Origin: Candidatus Nomurabacteria bacterium
GTDB lineage: Bacteria > Patescibacteriota > Minisyncoccia > Phycocordibacterales > UBA918
Assembly: GCA_020632135.1 (NCBI GenBank)
Contig: JACKGC010000001.1
Coordinates: forward strand, 1 to 50,240
Direction: 5' to 3'
DNA: 50,240 nt
Positions 5,204-47,658 of the stretch are shown here, piece after piece. Under the pieces are notes generated by a model. That model was not told the DNA's origin. It did not search any database and worked only from the letters and a program-made list of their open reading frames with translations. Position numbers and translations under genes: made by a program. The number at the start of each line of letters is the position of its first letter. Within the stretch, counting starts at the first letter, position 1.

Positions 5204-6421
5204 CTAGTGAGTCAAACCCCTCATAAGCGCACAGTGCGCCATAAGCGCTGTAACAAGAGCGTGGAGGTCCTCGTTGGTGGTACCAGGGCCAATGGTGAAG
5301 CGGAGGGTGGAGGCGGCGCGGGCGGCGTCAGCTGAGGTGGCTTTCACCACCGTGCTCTCACCGCCGCCCGCGCCGCTACAGGCTGACTTGGTACTGACCG
5401 CAAACCCCTTGCTGTCGAGCCAGACAGCGGCGTACTCGGTATCAAAGCCAAGGATAGAAATGTTGATATTATTTGCCAAGCGATCTTCTCCCGTTGGGCC
5501 ATTCAAAATCGCGTTAGGAATTGTTTCTAGGAGCCCTTTGATTCCTCCATCTCGCACACTGCGGGCTCGCTTCGCTCGCTCGCACCAATCGCTCTGGGCC
5601 ACTTCTAACGCCACCGCTGCTCCTACGATACCTGCCACGTTCTCTGTGCCTGGCCTAAGTCCAGCTTCTTGGCCGCCGCCGAAGGCGGCGGCCACAAGTT
5701 CCACCCGCCGACTACGCACCAGCACCCCTACCCCTTTCGGTCCACAGAATTTTCCTGCGTCAAGCACCATCACATCAGCACCAGTACTACCAAACTGACA
5801 ATTGAGCCAGAGCGGCGCTTGCGCCGCATCGAGATGAAACATGATCTTCGTGCCATATGTTTCCTCAGCCTCGCGCAGCACTTTCTTAATCCCATGAAGT
5901 TTCTGCACCACACCGATCTCACTGTTGGCATACGCAACCGAGAAAAGTACCGTTTTTTCTGAAAGCAGCTCACGCAAATGTGCGAGCTCAACAACTCCCT
6001 CCTCATCAACATCAACGTACTTCACCACTACCCCACGCCGCTTAAGAGCGCTCATAGTATTCATAACAGACGGATGTTCAATGCGCGTCGTGATCACTTC
6101 CATTTCTGCGGAGGCCTTTCCTTCGCACGTTGTACTTGCGGAGGCCTTTCCTTCGCACATTGCTTCGAGAGAGCCTAAAATAGCCAAATTGTTAGCCTCA
6201 GTGCCGCCAGACGTGAAGGTGATGAACTCTGGGCGGACCTGGAGAACGCGCGCGACTCCGTCGCGCGCGTTCTCCACCGCCCGCCTGGCCACCTGCCCCT
6301 CTTGGTGAATCGCGCTCGCGTTACCAAAGTCACCCTCAAGAAACGGCAACATCGCCACTTTTGCCTCCGGCAAAAGTGGCGTCGCCGCCGCCCAGTCTAG
6401 ATAAATCCTTTTCTCTTGCAT
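5204..6421 (-). CDS. Cysteine desulfurase (IscS/NifS family, class V aminotransferase)
   Basis: IYLDWAATP, FTSGGTEANN, HLDAAQ, the PLP lysine in AGKFCGPKG, RPGTEN and the catalytic Cys in SACSG. Start MQEK chosen. Confidence 0.92.
   Translation of the reverse strand: MQEKRIYLDWAAATPLLPEAKVAMLPFLEGDFGNASAIHQEGQVARRAVENARDGVARVLQVRPEFITFTSGGTEANNLAILGSLEAMCEGKASASTTCEGKASAEMEVITTRIEHPSVMNTMSALKRRGVVVKYVDVDEEGVVELAHLRELLSEKTVLFSVAYANSEIGVVQKLHGIKKVLREAEETYGTKIMFHLDAAQAPLWLNCQFGSTGADVMVLDAGKFCGPKGVGVLVRSRRVELVAAAFGGGQEAGLRPGTENVAGIVGAAVALEVAQSDWCERAKRARSVRDGGIKGLLETIPNAILNGPTGEDRLANNINISILGFDTEYAAVWLDSKGFAVSTKSACSGAGGGESTVVKATSADAARAASTLRFTIGPGTTNEDLHALVTALMAHCALMRGLTH
6107..6158. repeat. 22-bp direct repeat (30-bp period) in frame inside the desulfurase gene
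   Basis: TGCGGAGGCCTTTCCTTCGCAC at 6107-6128 and 6137-6158, translated as CEGKASA twice. Confidence 0.9.
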
Positions 6422-9390: not shown

Positions 9391-9598
9391 CAGTCGTAAA
9401 ACGCAGAAGTTCCTGTCTTAGGACAGGAACTTCTGCGTTTTAGCAAGCAAACTGCTTTGCTTGCGTGCGACTGTCCGAGGCGCGGCGATGTAATTTGCTC
9501 GTTCCTAGAGCAAATTACGAGCGAGCCGGGGTCGCAGGTACTTACTAGAATTGGAGCGCAGCGAACAATTATAGTTAGTAACCTGTGACGACAGCAGT
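9391..9598 (+). mobile_element. Structured insert downstream of tRNA-Lys (same family)
   Basis: A 20-bp perfect inverted repeat is followed by the 25-nt hairpin (9442-9466) and then GCGACTGTCCG, which is antisense to the tRNA end and trailer. The core at 9521-9589 is homologous to 29353-29419. Only a short GACAG duplication is visible. Confidence 0.7.
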
Positions 9599-9684: not shown

Positions 9685-9766
9685 GCGCAGGTGGCGAAAT
9701 TGGTATACGCGCTAGTTTTAGGCACTAGTGGAGCAATCCGTGGAGGTTCAAGTCCTCTCCTGCGCA
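9685..9766 (+). tRNA. tRNA-Leu (TAG)
   Basis: Acceptor GCGCAGG/CCTGCGC, anticodon arm CTAGT-TTTAGGC-ACTAG, long variable arm and GGTTCAAGTCC. Confidence 0.95.
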
Positions 9767-10064
9767 CAAAGCAAGTCCGCGTGTAGCGGGCTTTTTGTGT
9801 GCAGGAAGCAAAGTCTGGGAGACTGTGCATGAGGGCTTGAAGCCCGATTGAGACACGATCCGACCAGCGGGAGGATCTGTCCAATTGGGGTACTGAACGT
9901 GTAGCGTTCAAGTCCTCTCCTGCGCACAAAGCAAGTCCGCGTGTAGCGGGCTTTTTGTGTGCAGGAAGCAAAGTCTGGGAGACTGTGCATGAGGGCTTGA
10001 AGCCCGATTGAGACACGATCCGACCAGCGGGAGGATCTGTCCAATTGGGGTACTGAACGTGTAG
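9746..10064 (+). repeat. Two identical tandem copies (160-bp period) of a tRNA-Leu-targeted insert
   Basis: 9746-9904 equals 9906-10064. Each unit is the tRNA-Leu 3' end, a hairpin, the split antisense target and a core shared with 13-72. Confidence 0.9.
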
Positions 10065-10089
10065 GGTTCAATTCCCGCTCCCGGCACCA
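10065..10089 (+). pseudogene. Orphan 3' fragment of a different tRNA-Leu-like gene, ending in CCA
   Basis: GGTTCAATTCCCGCTCCCGGCACCA does not match tRNA-Leu(TAG). It is 3 mismatches from the 3' end of tRNA-Leu(TAA). Confidence 0.7.
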
Positions 10090-28038: not shown

Positions 28039-29271
28039 ATGGAACAGATACGATCAGACGTGGAGTCATTTGCACGGATCCGAGTGGTTGGTGTTGGTGG
28101 TTCTGGTAAGAACGCGGTGAACCACATGGTCTCTTCAAAGGTGAAGGGGGTGGAATTTATTGCCATCAACAGTGACGCGCAAGACCTGCACCACTCACTC
28201 GCAAAACGAAAGATCCACATTGGTAAGAACCTTACCCGCGGCCTCGGCGCTGGCGGTAACCCTGACATGGGCCGACGCGCTGCAGAAGAAACTCGAGAAG
28301 AGATCGCGAACGCGATCAAAGGATCCGACATGATCTTCATCACTGGTGGTATGGGTGGTGGCACCGGTACTGGCTCAGCACCAGTCGTGGCTAAGATCGC
28401 TCGCGAGAGCGGCGCCCTCACAGTGGGAGTCGTCACCAAGCCATTTCTCTTTGAGGGTCAGGAGCGCATGCGCTTAGCTTTACAAGGCATTGAAGAGTTG
28501 AAGCAAGAAGTAGATGCACTCATTACCATTCCTAACGACCGCCTGCTCGCGATCGTCGATAAGGAAACCACGGTGAGCAGCGCCTTTGAGCAATGTGACA
28601 ATATTCTCCGCCAGGCAGTTGAAGGTATTTCTGATCTCATCACCATGCCCGGTATAATCAACGTTGACTTCGCCGACATTCGAAGCGTTATGGAGAATGC
28701 TGGATCTGCTCTGATGGGCGTGGGTATCTCTTCTGGAGAAAAGCGTGCTGAAGAAGCGGCCCAAGCTGCTATCAATTCACCACTACTTGAAGTGTCTATC
28801 ACTGGTGCGAAGGGTGTACTCTTTGCGATTGCGGGAGGCGACGACCTCGGTATGCTCGAGATCCAAGATGCAGCACGTGTGATTACTGAATCAATCGACC
28901 CACAAGCGCGTGTGATCTTTGGTGCAATCCGTGACGAAAAGCTGAAGAAGAACGAACTCAAGGTCACAGTGATCGCCACCGGTTTCCCTGAAGAATCAGG
29001 CCATGGCAGCAACTACAGCATTGCGCGCCGCGCACCGGTGGCCGCAGAGACGCGTGAGCGCGAAGTGGAAGAAGACAAAGAGCCAGTGCGTGGCAAGATC
29101 TTCAATTCCCTACCAAAAAAACCTGAAGTAACGAAGCCAACTGAACCAATAAAGCCCACCCCAACCGAGCCGCCCAAGCGCGACCCGAAGCCAATCGATG
29201 CTGCTGACGACACCGACGATGATGACTGGGGCGCGGTTCCTGCATTCTTGCGTCGGAGTAAGCTGAAGTAA
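28039..29271 (+). CDS. ftsZ: Cell division protein FtsZ
   Basis: [15 protein letters not shown], tubulin signature GGGTGTG, NVDFAD and C-terminal VPAFLRR. Confidence 0.98.
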
Positions 29272-29457
29272 GCCACTTGCGCTGTTCGCAAGTATGCGGA
29301 ACCGCGAAGCGCAACAATGTGAGGAGCGGCTTTAGCCCGCCGCGACGAACCAGCGAGCTGGGGTCGCGAACACTTAGTAGATTTAAGCGAAGCGAAGGAT
29401 ATACTTAGTGATTCGTGACCGGTTCCTGCATTCTTGCGTCGGAGTAAGTTGAAATAA
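29234..29457 (+). mobile_element. Target-duplicating insert at the ftsZ 3' end (same family as the tRNA inserts)
   Basis: A 38-bp direct repeat lies at 29234-29271 and 29420-29457 with 2 mismatches. An internal ATGCGGAACCGCG is antisense to the target. The core is homologous to the tRNA-Lys insert. Confidence 0.8.
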
Positions 29458-29601
29458 TAGGCTCCGTTGTTGAATTATCGATAATAAATGGCCGGCGTCA
29501 AAGGCGCCGGCCATTTATTCTGCACGGCCCACCTGGGTATCTCGTATACTTCATGGTATCCTACGGGCACTATTTGTTTTAAGTTCAGAATGTAAATCCG
29601 T

Positions 29602-30525
29602 ATGTACGATCTTTTGATCATTGGTGGTGGACCAGCTGGCACCTCAGCTGGCGTTTACGCCTCACGCAAACAACTCAAGACCCTCTTTGTCACCAAGGAA
29701 TGGGGCGGCCAGAGCACAGTCTCAACCGACATCCAAAACTGGATCGGCACCCCATCGATCAGCGGTAACGACCTCGCGAAAAGTTTGCGTTCTCACTTAG
29801 AAACGTACGCAGGCAATCATGTCACCATCATCGGTGACCAGATCGTCACTAGCCTGACTAAGCTCGATGAGGGCTATGAGGCGACTCTTTCCGATGGGTC
29901 AACCCATGTTGCTAAGGCCATTCTGATCTGTGCCGGCTCACAACGACGCAAACTTGACGTACCCGGCGCTGACAGGTTCGAACACAAAGGCCTCACTTAC
30001 TGCGCTAGCTGTGATGGCCCGGTCTTTGCCGGCCAGGATGTTGCAGTGATCGGCGGCGGTAACGCTGGCTTCGAGACCGCTGCGCAGCTCCTTGCATATT
30101 GTAAGAGTGTGACACTGCTGCAATACGGTGATGCATACAAAGCAGATCCAGTAACTGTTGAAAGGGTGCTTGCACACGAGAACATGACCGGCATCCTCAA
30201 CGCAGAAACAAAATCAGTCGAGGGTGAGAATTTTGTATCCGGCCTTGCCTACAAAGACATGTCCACCGAGGAAATCAAGACCATTCCCGTCACTGGGGTT
30301 TTTGTTGAGATCGGTATGATGCCAAACACTGACTTTGCTGCTAACATCGTAGAACGTGATGACTATCGTCGTGTGGTCATCGACCCTTGGACCCAAAAGA
30401 CCTCCGCTGAAAATATTTGGGCGGCTGGCGATTGCACCAACGTGCGTTACCACCAAAACAACATCGCTTCAGGCGATGCTGTACGAGCCCTAGAAGATAT
30501 CTACGTAACCTTGAAGGCTAAATAG
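29602..30525 (+). CDS. Thioredoxin reductase / AhpF-like FAD-dependent disulfide reductase
   Basis: GGGPAG, CASCDG redox motif, GGGNAG NADPH motif and WAAGDC. Confidence 0.92.
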   Translation: MYDLLIIGGGPAGTSAGVYASRKQLKTLFVTKEWGGQSTVSTDIQNWIGTPSISGNDLAKSLRSHLETYAGNHVTIIGDQIVTSLTKLDEGYEATLSDGSTHVAKAILICAGSQRRKLDVPGADRFEHKGLTYCASCDGPVFAGQDVAVIGGGNAGFETAAQLLAYCKSVTLLQYGDAYKADPVTVERVLAHENMTGILNAETKSVEGENFVSGLAYKDMSTEEIKTIPVTGVFVEIGMMPNTDFAANIVERDDYRRVVIDPWTQKTSAENIWAAGDCTNVRYHQNNIASGDAVRALEDIYVTLKAK

Positions 30526-32765: not shown

Positions 32766-32840
32766 GGCCCCATCGTCTAACGGCTAGGACGCCAGGTTTT
32801 CATTCTGGAAATCGGAGTTCGATTCTCCGTGGGGTCACCA
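32766..32840 (+). tRNA. tRNA-Glu (TTC), CCA encoded
   Basis: Acceptor GGCCCCA/TGGGGTC, anticodon arm CCAGG-TTTTCAT-TCTGG and GTTCGATTC. Confidence 0.95.
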
Positions 32841-34335
32841 ACGAAGATTTATCACGTTTATACTCCTCAGATAGTGAGTAAATAGGCGACAAAACAGCGG
32901 TTCCAAAACCGTTGTTTTGTGTATAAGGAATACTGCCCTCGAAAATAAAATTTTGGAACCGTAGCCTTTTTTCAGGCTGTTTTACCAATCGCTTCCAAGT
33001 ATCAGGAGTATCAATAATGAAACTTATGCAGTAATCAAGAGCGGCTTCAAAGTCTAATTCGCCACCCCGCACTTCAATCAAGTTACTTTGAGCGGCATAT
33101 AGCTGTCGTTCCACTTCTCGTTTTCGTTCTAAGAAGTCAGTCTTGGTATAGATACCCTCTTCAAAATTGTTAAAGATGGCTTTCTTTTTCTCATACAGGC
33201 TAGCGACCTGCTGTCTAACCGTCTCGTTTTGTTTTTCAGCATTGGTGTTATCTTCTCGATAAATTTCCATACACGCCTCTTTGAAAGCGTTGGCAAATTC
33301 AAAGGTAGGATTTATCTCCTCTAGAAAAGAGACAAATGATTCTTCAAGGTCTTTCTTTTTGATTGATTTAGCGTGCGGACAACCTTGTTTGTGATGATGA
33401 TAATAACCGTGCTTCTTGCCACCACGTCCAGTCGAAAAGCTACCTGTTAATGGATCATCACACCACTCGCAAGAAACCAGTCTGCGAAGTGGAAAATTAG
33501 GATTCTTTTCTTGTTTCTTTGTTCCCTTATGTGACCGTCCGGCACCTTGGCATTTATAAAATAGTGACTCAGTGACAATAGGTTCATGTTGTCCTTTGAC
33601 TTCGATGCCCCATTCATCCTTTTTCACGATACCAGCATACAGAGGGTTATGGATCATTTTTTGAATAGTTTGAAACTCAATCTTTTTGCCAGATTTTGAG
33701 CGTAGACCTTTTTCAAATAAGAGAGTGGCTAGAGTTTTGTATGTATGAGTCCCTTTCACATACTCATTGAAAGCGAGGCGGACATACTGAGCGTCGTTAT
33801 CAGGCACCATAACGCCGCCTTTTTCTAGACGTTGATAACCTGTAGGAGCCGGCCAGACCCAGATTCCTTGCTTAAGGCGTTCTCGCATACCAGTCGAGCT
33901 ACGTTCAGAGCGGATACTGTTATCAAATTCAGCTGAAGCAGACAATGTGCCCATTAAGAATTTTCCGATTGGTGATTCATCAACCGGTTCAGTAGCAGAG
34001 CGAATAGTGACACCATATTTATTAAGACTGTTTTGAACAGCGAAGTGATCGGTCTGACTACGAGAAAAGCGGTCTAATTTATATACTATGAAAAAATCAA
34101 TCTGGTTTTTCTTTTGACCACAAAATGAAATTGCTTTAAGAAACTGAGGACGATCGGCAGTTTTAGCAGATTCGCCTCGATCAACAAACACATCAGCAAC
34201 TTCTATACCTTCACGTTCGGCATATTCACGACAAATCCGCTCCTGTGATTCAAGACTAGTTCCATCCACCTGTTCGAGCGAAGACACGCGACAATAGATA
34301 ATCCCTCGCTTTCCTGTCATATCAGTATCATACAT
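32800..34335 (-). CDS. Large serine recombinase (resolvase + recombinase + Zn-ribbon domains), 511 aa
   Basis: Catalytic Ser in IYCRVSS, DRGESAKTADRPQF, VYKLDRFSR, GIWVWPAPTGY, HEPIV and CEWC...HHKQGC. The C-terminus runs into the antisense strand of tRNA-Glu. Confidence 0.95.
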   Translation of the reverse strand: MYDTDMTGKRGIIYCRVSSLEQVDGTSLESQERICREYAEREGIEVADVFVDRGESAKTADRPQFLKAISFCGQKKNQIDFFIVYKLDRFSRSQTDHFAVQNSLNKYGVTIRSATEPVDESPIGKFLMGTLSASAEFDNSIRSERSSTGMRERLKQGIWVWPAPTGYQRLEKGGVMVPDNDAQYVRLAFNEYVKGTHTYKTLATLLFEKGLRSKSGKKIEFQTIQKMIHNPLYAGIVKKDEWGIEVKGQHEPIVTESLFYKCQGAGRSHKGTKKQEKNPNFPLRRLVSCEWCDDPLTGSFSTGRGGKKHGYYHHHKQGCPHAKSIKKKDLEESFVSFLEEINPTFEFANAFKEACMEIYREDNTNAEKQNETVRQQVASLYEKKKAIFNNFEEGIYTKTDFLERKREVERQLYAAQSNLIEVRGGELDFEAALDYCISFIIDTPDTWKRLVKQPEKRLRFQNFIFEGSIPYTQNNGFGTAVLSPIYSLSEEYKRDKSSLVTPRRIELRFPE

Positions 34336-34337
34336 AG

Positions 34338-34517
34338 CTATTTTTCATCGTCCACTTCCGCTGACCCCACGGCGAATTTGGAATCACGGTCTTCTTTATA
34401 AGAATCGTATGCAAGGTGCGCCACTTCATAGATTTTTTCACGAATAAGAGCCACTTCTTCATCAGAAGCATTAGCGAGTTTAGGTTCTATTTCTCTAAGA
34501 TGCTTAAGGCTCATCAT
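34338..34517 (-). CDS. Small helical protein (59 aa) coupled to the recombinase; possible directionality factor
   Basis: MMSLKHLREIEPKLANASDEEVALIREKIYEVAHLAY. It overlaps the Rep stop and ends 2 bp before the recombinase start. The function is inferred. Confidence 0.55.
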   Translation of the reverse strand: MMSLKHLREIEPKLANASDEEVALIREKIYEVAHLAYDSYKEDRDSKFAVGSAEVDDEK

Positions 34518-47132: not shown

Positions 47133-47515
47133 CAAAGACAAAATAGCGTCCCGCAAGGGCGCATATTTTGTTTGCGGAAGCGAGCAAGCCAACTACTTGG
47201 CTTGCGTGAGGGATTCGAAGCTGCGGAGCATGTGCTGAGCTTGCGAAGCACAGCGAGCAGCCGTCCAAGAACACGAGCTGTTTTCGAGCACAGAGTGTGA
47301 GAAAAACAGCCGTGATTCTGGGACGAATCCCTCCGCCTGTTGAAAATACCGCCGTGAGGCGGTTATTTTCTTAGGCGGAAGCGGAGCAAAGTGCCCTGCG
47401 GCACTTTGCGTAGGGATAAGAAAGCCGGAGCGATGTCGCGCGGAGCGGAGCGAGCACGACACGCGAGGCGGGGTCGCGAAAAATTTTTACAGAAAATTTA
47501 TCAGTGACCGAATCC
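47115..47515 (+). mobile_element. Two stacked target-duplicating inserts downstream of tRNA-Ser
   Basis: CGAATCCCTCCGC lies at 47115-47127 and 47324-47336. A perfect 22-nt antisense of the tRNA end is split by a 25-nt hairpin (47183-47207). The second unit has a 27-nt hairpin (47385-47411) and ends GTGACC-GAATCC. Confidence 0.8.
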
Positions 47516-47658
47516 TTACAGGATCAGTACACCTTGTCGATATTTTCTTTCCCTACGTCAGAAAGTATCTGACAAGGCCTTGCGAAGGTCTCCCAGACCT
47601 TCTCACCCTCCGCTTCCGCAATAAAAAACCAAGCTGCCTAGGCAGCTTGGTGAAGTGG

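Follow-up and report, generated by a model that had tools for sequence, protein, structure and literature searches.

In the 50,240-nucleotide (nt) stretch of contig JACKGC010000001.1 that was analyzed (the window; Candidatus Nomurabacteria bacterium, assembly GCA_020632135.1), the last 38 nt of the ftsZ gene occur twice, once within the gene and once a short distance downstream, and the DNA between the two copies has the layout of an insert. The features of this ftsZ locus are as follows, in order along the plus strand.

Directly upstream of ftsZ: the FtsA gene
28039..29271, plus strand: ftsZ, 410 aa, from the open reading frame (ORF) list, with the Pfam domains Tubulin and FtsZ_C
29234..29271, plus strand: in-gene tail copy T1, the final 38 nt of ftsZ including the stop codon (12-codon end), CGGTTCCTGCATTCTTGCGTCGGAGTAAGCTGAAGTAA
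29274..29304, plus strand: antisense arm, which forms an imperfect long hairpin with 29234-29265 and places the stop codon in the loop
29305..29404, plus strand: structured scaffold with the motifs GCGCAACAATGTGAGG..., GCGAGCTGGGGTCGCGA and CACTTAGTAG..., from an alignment of 46 elements
29405..29419, plus strand: right end (type I), TTAGTGATTCGTGAC (...GTGAC), conserved in 52 ftsZ-linked elements
29420..29457, plus strand: orphan tail copy T2 (repeat D5), ...AAGTTGAAATAA, contiguous with the native downstream DNA
29486..29517, plus strand: terminator-like hairpin, read from the sequence and belonging to repeat family D4, in which T runs follow GC-rich hairpins
29602..30525, plus strand: gene for a thioredoxin-reductase-like flavoprotein (trxB), Pfam Pyr_redox_2

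FtsZ is the product of an essential cell-division gene, and its C-terminal peptide is the conserved FtsA-binding (partner-binding) tail, which tethers FtsZ to FtsA. T1 and T2 encode an identical 11-residue peptide followed by a stop codon, start 186 nt apart, and show exactly two mismatches, 29263 C/29449 T (CTG/TTG, Leu) and 29268 G/29454 A (AAG/AAA, Lys), such that the in-gene variant ends ...AAGCTGAAGTAA and the orphan variant ends ...AAGTTGAAATAA. An earlier sequence-only reading of this DNA had described the two 38-nt copies in the same terms, and we reproduced its coordinates, its two synonymous mismatches and, by Pfam, its identification of ftsZ. T2 lies outside any ORF, with an in-frame TGA preceding it. 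The chance that two random substitutions would both be silent is 0.064 at this locus, and the silent-only pattern in this window alone is therefore without significance. The 148 nt between the copies have no coding capacity, and the ftsZ-linked units that were examined, which range from 94 to 311 nt, include none with a gene or recombinase. The hairpin at 29486-29517 is presumably the original ftsZ terminator, now 186 nt farther from the stop codon, and the thioredoxin-reductase-like gene is the conserved right-hand neighbor of the ftsZ spacer in relatives. As the best explanation of these observations and those below, we consider it likely that 29234-29419 is one structured mobile mini-element of 186 nt that encodes no protein, and that it is a retargeted member of a Patescibacteria family that otherwise occupies tRNA T-loops.

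Every ftsZ-linked insert starts with an antisense arm, either directly or after a short leader. Arms of the same kind are present in 64 related elements and show Watson-Crick covariation at silent sites. In this window, the predicted minimum-free-energy fold of tail plus arm is -34.9 kcal/mol, and hairpins are predicted at both ends of the element. The scaffold of the insert has a close counterpart behind tRNA-Gln in this genome (alignment; BLAST, 85% over 120 nt), and the identical 15-mer right end TTAGTGATTCGTGAC is found on the tRNA-Gln and tRNA-Arg copies of this genome. The right end of the tRNA-Gln copy adjoins the tRNA T-loop sequence CGAGTCC..., and the arms of the tRNA-Gln copy and the ftsZ element are entirely different. 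Genomes of the genus each hold many scaffold copies as detected by BLAST; an nhmmer scaffold census of this genome found just 5 because the module is too divergent, and motif scans together with BLAST gave more. No Rfam family matched the scaffold of the insert. The ftsZ site, TGGGGCG/CGGTTCC, resembles the T-arm context GGGGTT/CGAGTCC, a likeness that may have offered a route to the new target. The proposal in the sequence-only reading that the family targets conserved protein-coding ends in addition to tRNAs holds for ftsZ and did not extend further, as no other coding target was present among the few other module copies examined. We also considered and rejected the idea that the scaffold is an orphaned tail-coding piece of a recombinase gene, since its hairpin lengths vary by non-multiples of three and its stems carry compensatory substitutions.

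The arrangement recurs in relatives. The 3′ end of ftsZ was located in 141 of 150 genomes of the same family, 133 loci were retrieved, and the counts that follow are over 134 genomes, with orphans defined as copies of the tail peptide within 900 nt downstream of ftsZ. The tail peptide is unchanged in 133 of the 134 genomes, with silent sites near saturation. At least one orphan tail was found in 43 of them, several of which contain two or three, and in about 30 further loci all that follows the insert is the initial 9-16 nt of a tail or a heavily eroded tail. By the combined signature, approximately 54% of 195 usable loci (the genomes and 80 metagenome loci) are occupied, and the same ftsZ position is used by at least three scaffold types. 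Outside the family, intact duplicated tails were found at the order level in one other family only (G262 and G507), where they show the same architecture and silent-only differences. In the closely related strains L053, L200, L202 and L057, the spacer between ftsZ and trxB is composed of whole and partial mini-elements of different scaffold types in stacks, and its fragments are common to these strains in differing combinations, from which the sequence of insertions and deletions could be worked out.

Pairs of strains show where exchange begins. L202 is 100% identical to L053 over the 158 nt of ftsZ upstream, but the two have different inserts and show 12 silent differences between their tails; the change sets in no more than 2 nt from the 38-mer. 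L053 and L200 are only 88% identical upstream, yet they have the same insert and an in-gene tail that is identical at 38 of 38 positions, with four differences in the 28 nt upstream, none in the tail and two in the 100-nt insert. These patterns could in principle be generated without dedicated machinery if whole ftsZ-trxB spacers were swapped by natural transformation and homologous recombination within the flanking genes. DNA uptake is generally attributed to Patescibacteria, a conserved gene flanks the spacer on either side, and scaffolds and tail-arm units re-assort, each of which is consistent with swapping. However, in both strain comparisons exchange has a sharp boundary where the 38-mer starts, the same scaffold is found at a fixed position in tRNA T-loops, and orphans build up as ordered stacks, which together make spacer swapping an improbable account.

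We also examined which of the two tail copies is foreign. Comparison with empty alleles, which had been suggested by the sequence-only reading, gave mean distances of 10.0 and 10.3 and no discrimination, with silent sites saturated; the empty locus nearest to any occupied one is no closer than 85% upstream identity. Because silent sites are saturated at such distances, sister-strain comparisons were used instead. By local complementarity, the arm is a better match to the tail before it in 32 units and to the orphan after it in 6 (Wilcoxon p = 1.5e-6), and the complementarity of the orphan to the arm was at the random level, like that of the tail of a random genome. The outer stem includes two four-fold degenerate sites, at codon position 3 of Ala and of Val; of 70 cases at these sites, the arm is complementary to the in-gene tail in 63, and each of the four pair types is represented. 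The arm sides with the tail in 33 of the cases in which tail and orphan carry different bases there, and with the orphan in two (p = 4e-8). Among occupied tails, 19% have internal palindromes of at least 5 bp within the FLRR codons, compared with 6% among empty-site tails (p = 0.007), and in short-arm elements the silent choices instead make the FLRR codons self-complementary; the palindrome excess indicates that the coding sequence is shaped by the fold, such that the in-gene tail is under dual constraint.

The match between arm and in-gene tail would also be seen if the polarity were reversed, with the resident tail remaining in the gene, the arm serving as a guide to it, and the element landing after the stop codon and bringing the orphan at its right end from a prior host. 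Several observations contradict this arrangement and leave it quite improbable. The inserts of L037 and L046 are 97% identical, and their in-gene tails differ at 4 sites, whereas their orphans, which would have traveled with the inserts, differ at 14 of 38. The sister pairs L075/L077 and L134/L140 differ in their inserts and in-gene tails and have the distal orphan and the native downstream DNA in common. Strains that are identical upstream have different in-gene tails, and L053 and L200 have an identical in-gene tail despite 12% divergence in upstream ftsZ. Furthermore, orphan distance weakly tracks upstream ftsZ similarity (rho -0.27), whereas in-gene tail distance does not (rho 0.01). In the relatives, therefore, it is the in-gene tail that comes in with the insert, and the orphan is what had been the resident end before its displacement. 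The sequence-only reading had supposed that the insert carried the ftsZ end of another strain and restored the gene on integration; the covariation of arm and in-gene tail and the co-transfer of tail and insert bear this out, with the refinement that the foreign copy is the one within the gene. In this window the donor allele is nearly identical, with two differences, and in most relatives the donor is a different species.

The divergence between tail and orphan argues for separate histories of the two copies. Among 51 adjacent tail/orphan pairs, which together contain 504 nucleotide differences, the peptide and stop are exact in 36 pairs, and these differ on average at 8.6 of 36 nt, for a total of 310 differences, none of which changes an amino acid or the stop. 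Tails and orphans diverge at 9.2 of 38 positions, close to the 10.9 of 38 for tails of random different genomes. The distribution is bimodal, with nine young pairs at 0-5 differences and 27 pairs at 8-16. Because silent divergence is near that of unrelated genomes and the peptide is kept, the two copies had independent histories as working FtsZ ends, as anticipated by the claims that both copies have been under coding constraint and that the duplication is not a simple copy made at insertion. The ordinary alternative is that the 38-mer was copied from the resident gene at insertion, through target-site duplication or slippage, and that the silent differences arose later by chance. The probability given above for two silent changes in this window alone and the few relatives with 0-3 differences are compatible with such copying. 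In contrast, 27 of the 36 intact pairs differ at 8-16 of 38 positions without an amino-acid change, for which neutral drift has a probability of about 1e-5 per pair, tails and orphans are as diverged as those of unrelated genomes, and strains with identical upstream sequence have in-gene tails that switch along with the insert. Drift in place, starting from a copy generated by the insertion, cannot give the observed pattern, and we view ordinary duplication as very improbable for this locus.

Once displaced, orphans are not maintained and undergo decay or truncation: residue or stop changes are present in 15 of the 51 orphans, mostly in distal members of stacks. One insertion was observed in several metagenome contigs and one genome (L211, L213 and L220 versus L218 and L085), with an in-gene tail that is identical in all of them and an orphan that reads PAFLLRSKLK in some and another 10-residue sequence in others, which is population-level orphan decay in progress.

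Templated editing of the FtsZ tail, as by the template and variable repeats of a diversity-generating retroelement, can be dismissed: such elements are common in these bacteria, and a repeat at the 3′ end of a gene with a copy nearby is what they would show, but the differences are not adenine-specific (C/T and G/A here, all types in relatives), the peptide is never the variable protein segment that such an element would produce, the repeat is only 38 nt, and the same scaffold flanks tRNA genes.

Several observations weigh against a mini-element that brings its own ftsZ end. In this window, T1 and T2 are identical across the region that pairs with the arm, and the assignment of the foreign copy here therefore rests on analogy with the relatives. 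For this lineage, no strain was found that is nearly identical and has the site empty. Detection of orphans by their peptide over-represents intact orphans. Of the occupied genomes, 22 lack a large serine recombinase and 18 lack a Y1 gene. Finally, the scaffolds of L066 and L239 are 99% identical, and their tails differ at 12 sites, with each tail matching its own arm; across elements, scaffold identity and tail identity showed no correlation (rho 0.09). The L066/L239 pair indicates that the tail-arm unit and the scaffold can re-assort, and we infer that this occurs through recombination between stacked scaffolds, i.e., array collapse.

For the mini-element, we propose the following series of events. 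Insertion would occur at, or a few nt upstream of, the first base of the 38-mer, and the target would be the codon boundary Gly-Ala/Val at which the FtsZ C-terminal peptide starts. From left to right, the element would consist of its own copy of the ftsZ end (12 codons), the antisense arm that pairs with it, the conserved scaffold and the conserved right end. The ftsZ gene would thus be completed by codons of the element, and the resident 38-mer would be moved 186 nt downstream as an untranslated orphan. Each copy would once have been a working FtsZ tail in a different lineage, which would give the silent-only difference, and the orphan would decay afterwards. Repeated insertions would stack on the ftsZ-proximal side, and arrays appear to collapse by recombination between scaffolds. 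The predicted empty junction is ...GATGACTGGGGCG joined to CGGTTCC...AAGTTGAAATAATAGG, and the predicted closed-end junction is ...TTAGTGATTCGTGAC joined to CGGTTCC...AAGCTGAAGTAAGCC.

The partner of the arm is the tail of the element itself. A strict guide that reads the chromosome is not supported, because the arm matches the resident target no more than the protein fixes. Mismatches within the helix comprise 29 G·T and 30 A·C, with no wobble excess, which points to pairing of the DNA type and not of RNA with wobble pairs. No dinucleotide or longer core is evidently common to the two mapped junctions, and no position shows enforced identity between incoming and resident tails beyond the sites fixed by the protein. 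We therefore favor only a general scheme, in which an enzyme supplied in trans would act on the folded end of the element, a hairpin that mimics the target duplex, at the foot of that hairpin. Our tentative model is that gene-less elements of about 190 nt carry a swappable hairpin, composed of a gene-end copy and an antisense arm, as an address label on a constant scaffold; that folded single-stranded DNA imitates the target and is spliced at the hairpin foot by the trans-acting enzyme; that a change of hairpin retargeted the family from the tRNA T-loop to the FtsZ tail; and that exchange of the FtsZ peptide between species is a by-product. We hold this model, taken as a whole, to be possible and somewhat doubtful. 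No description of such a programmable target-mimicry mode of site-specific insertion was found in the literature.

Large serine recombinases and an HUH/Y1 single-strand transposase are candidates for the insertion enzyme, and any one of them can be favored only with reserve. The genome, which is 67% complete, encodes three full-length large serine recombinases (one of these at tRNA-Glu in the window), one tyrosine (Xer-like) recombinase and two Y1/HUH genes; TnpB (PF07282) and an IS110 DEDD recombinase (PF01548) were not found in this 67%-complete genome. Across the family, ftsZ occupancy is associated with the presence of Y1 (odds ratio 2.8, p = 0.009, uncorrected for phylogeny) and shows no association with large serine recombinases (odds ratio 0.87). 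Unrelated REP-like palindromes of their own lie on both sides of the Y1 genes of this genome. The palindromes TGCGGAGGCCTTTCCTTCGCA at 6107-6162 are those that flank a 232-aa Y1/HUH (RAYT-like) gene elsewhere; the listed Y1/HUH loci are genome C1:482699-483397 and C1:103609-104211, and the second Y1-like gene has its own palindrome type, TCTAGGGACTT...AAGTCCCTAGA. In the window, the gene for one large serine recombinase (32800-34335, minus strand) terminates within tRNA-Glu (32766-32840), such that its last codons are the antisense of the 3′ half of the tRNA, and a partial inverted copy of the tRNA-Glu end (GACCCCACGG...) is present at 34363, just upstream of the start of the recombinase gene. 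The tRNA-Glu locus as a whole (32766-34380) thus has the layout of the mini-elements, with a gene end and an inverted copy, but with a recombinase gene between them.

Three other mechanisms were tried and rejected. A TnpB/IscB-type omega-RNA, an idea that arose from the first 9-16 nt of the orphan being kept beside the right end, is contradicted by the absence of TnpB from the 67%-complete genome, of an Rfam match and of an RNA-type wobble bias. For a bridge or seek RNA of the IS110/IS1111 kind, no PF01548 enzyme was found in this incomplete genome, and the complementarity of the arm to the resident (orphan) tail is at the random level. If the inverted repeat represented two half-sites around a crossover after the stop codon, then the arm would match the orphan, which it does not.

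Other tRNA loci of this genome contain related structures. Behind the tRNA-Ser(CGA) gene (47134-47620) are two nested or serial mini-elements. Both contain a terminator-like hairpin and an antisense arm that is interrupted by a hairpin, and both finish with a copy of the tRNA end; the second has the GCGAGGCGGGGTCGCGA scaffold motif in common with the ftsZ element. The type I module at tRNA-Lys (9392-9589) ends with TTAGTAACCTGTGAC, followed by GACAGCAGTAGTCTGCG..., which is not a copy of the tRNA-Lys end, and no target copy accompanies the module behind tRNA-Arg (genome C1:375656) either; the two modules may be eroded or relocated copies. At tRNA-Leu(UAG) (9746-10065), a 160-nt unit is present twice in tandem, with each copy closing with a copy of the tRNA 3′ end. 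This unit resembles the start of the window, 1-92 (GAGG.TTCGAAGCCCGATTGAG ... CCAATTGGGGTACTGAA), which suggests a second mini-element family. At tRNA-Tyr (1849-2056), the first approximately 20 nt of the gene and some upstream bases (TTGCGTCGGTGGTGGAGTGG) are duplicated 187 nt upstream, around a hairpin-rich insert. The arrangement suggests insertion at the 5′ end of the tRNA gene, whereas inserts are usually at the 3′ T-loop.

The replacement of a gene end by a mobile element has precedents. In Escherichia coli icd, according to the account of this gene in PMC13626634 (citing Hill et al. 1989), e14 and phage 21 supply a replacement 3′ end, and the displaced native end (icdC) is a pseudogene fragment at the far junction with mainly silent differences. 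As far as that account goes, the ftsZ element is alike in its integration inside the 3′ end of a housekeeping gene, its element-borne end and its displaced orphan. In contrast, e14 is a 15-kb prophage with its own integrase, whereas the ftsZ element is 186 nt without a gene, replaces only the 12 codons of the FtsZ partner-binding peptide, pairs its replacement end with an antisense arm, recurs in about half of the family and forms stacks. Genomic islands in tRNA and tmRNA genes (Islander-type) similarly split their target gene, restore its 3′ end and leave a displaced fragment that marks their far end (PMC4383910). Like these islands and their integrase-less derivatives, the ftsZ element regenerates its target, and its scaffold and right end are those of tRNA T-loop inserts; unlike the islands, it has no integrase, its target is protein-coding, and its incoming and resident copies have no block of nucleotide identity of the kind that forms an attP/attB core, with silent sites that are random. 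Thus, of the features of elements that regenerate gene ends, an element-borne expressed end and a displaced native fragment at the distal junction are present, and an own integrase and an identity core are absent.

Other likenesses concern the fold. The attP of CTX phage at dif and the attC of integrons, which are folded single-strand hairpins of two inverted copies used by tyrosine recombinases, present a target-like duplex, as the hairpin of the ftsZ element would. In the ftsZ element, the pairing partners covary inside the element, not with the target, and show no RNA-type wobble bias. The CTX attP and attC systems are each matched to one fixed target and to XerCD or IntI, whereas in the ftsZ family the hairpin changes with the target (tRNAs and ftsZ) on a constant scaffold. 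A likeness may also exist to IS200/IS605-type single-strand transposons with their gene-less derivatives (PATEs) and to REP/RAYT systems, in small gene-less units with hairpins at both ends that insert in one orientation and without a mechanistic target duplication; the presence of Y1/HUH genes in this genome and their weak correlation with ftsZ occupancy would fit. However, the ftsZ element has as its left hairpin a copy of the end of its target gene, the Y1 genes here have unrelated REP palindromes of their own, and 18 occupied genomes have no Y1. We found no description of these ftsZ/tRNA mini-elements in the literature. The logic of gene-end replacement has long been known from tRNA islands and from e14 and phage 21, and the insertion mechanism of the mini-element family may be new.

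The ftsZ insertions are informative about the family because tRNA ends do not vary, and tRNA targets therefore cannot separate the copy carried by an element from the chromosomal target. The 12 FtsZ codons contain 12-19 free silent sites, which make the copy of the element and the target distinguishable and provide a natural experiment. That the arm reads the copy of the element itself, and not the resident gene, shifts the view of the mechanism for the whole family from a guide to a target-mimicking hairpin. If it is true that the hairpin sets the address, then a programmable tool for insertion, of very small size, could be developed from the system. Similar insertions elsewhere could be revealed by a simple search for duplicates, at the peptide level, a short distance downstream of conserved genes. 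For the bacteria themselves, these results indicate that mobile DNA encodes the FtsA-tethering peptide of FtsZ in roughly half of one bacterial family, and that this peptide passes between species.

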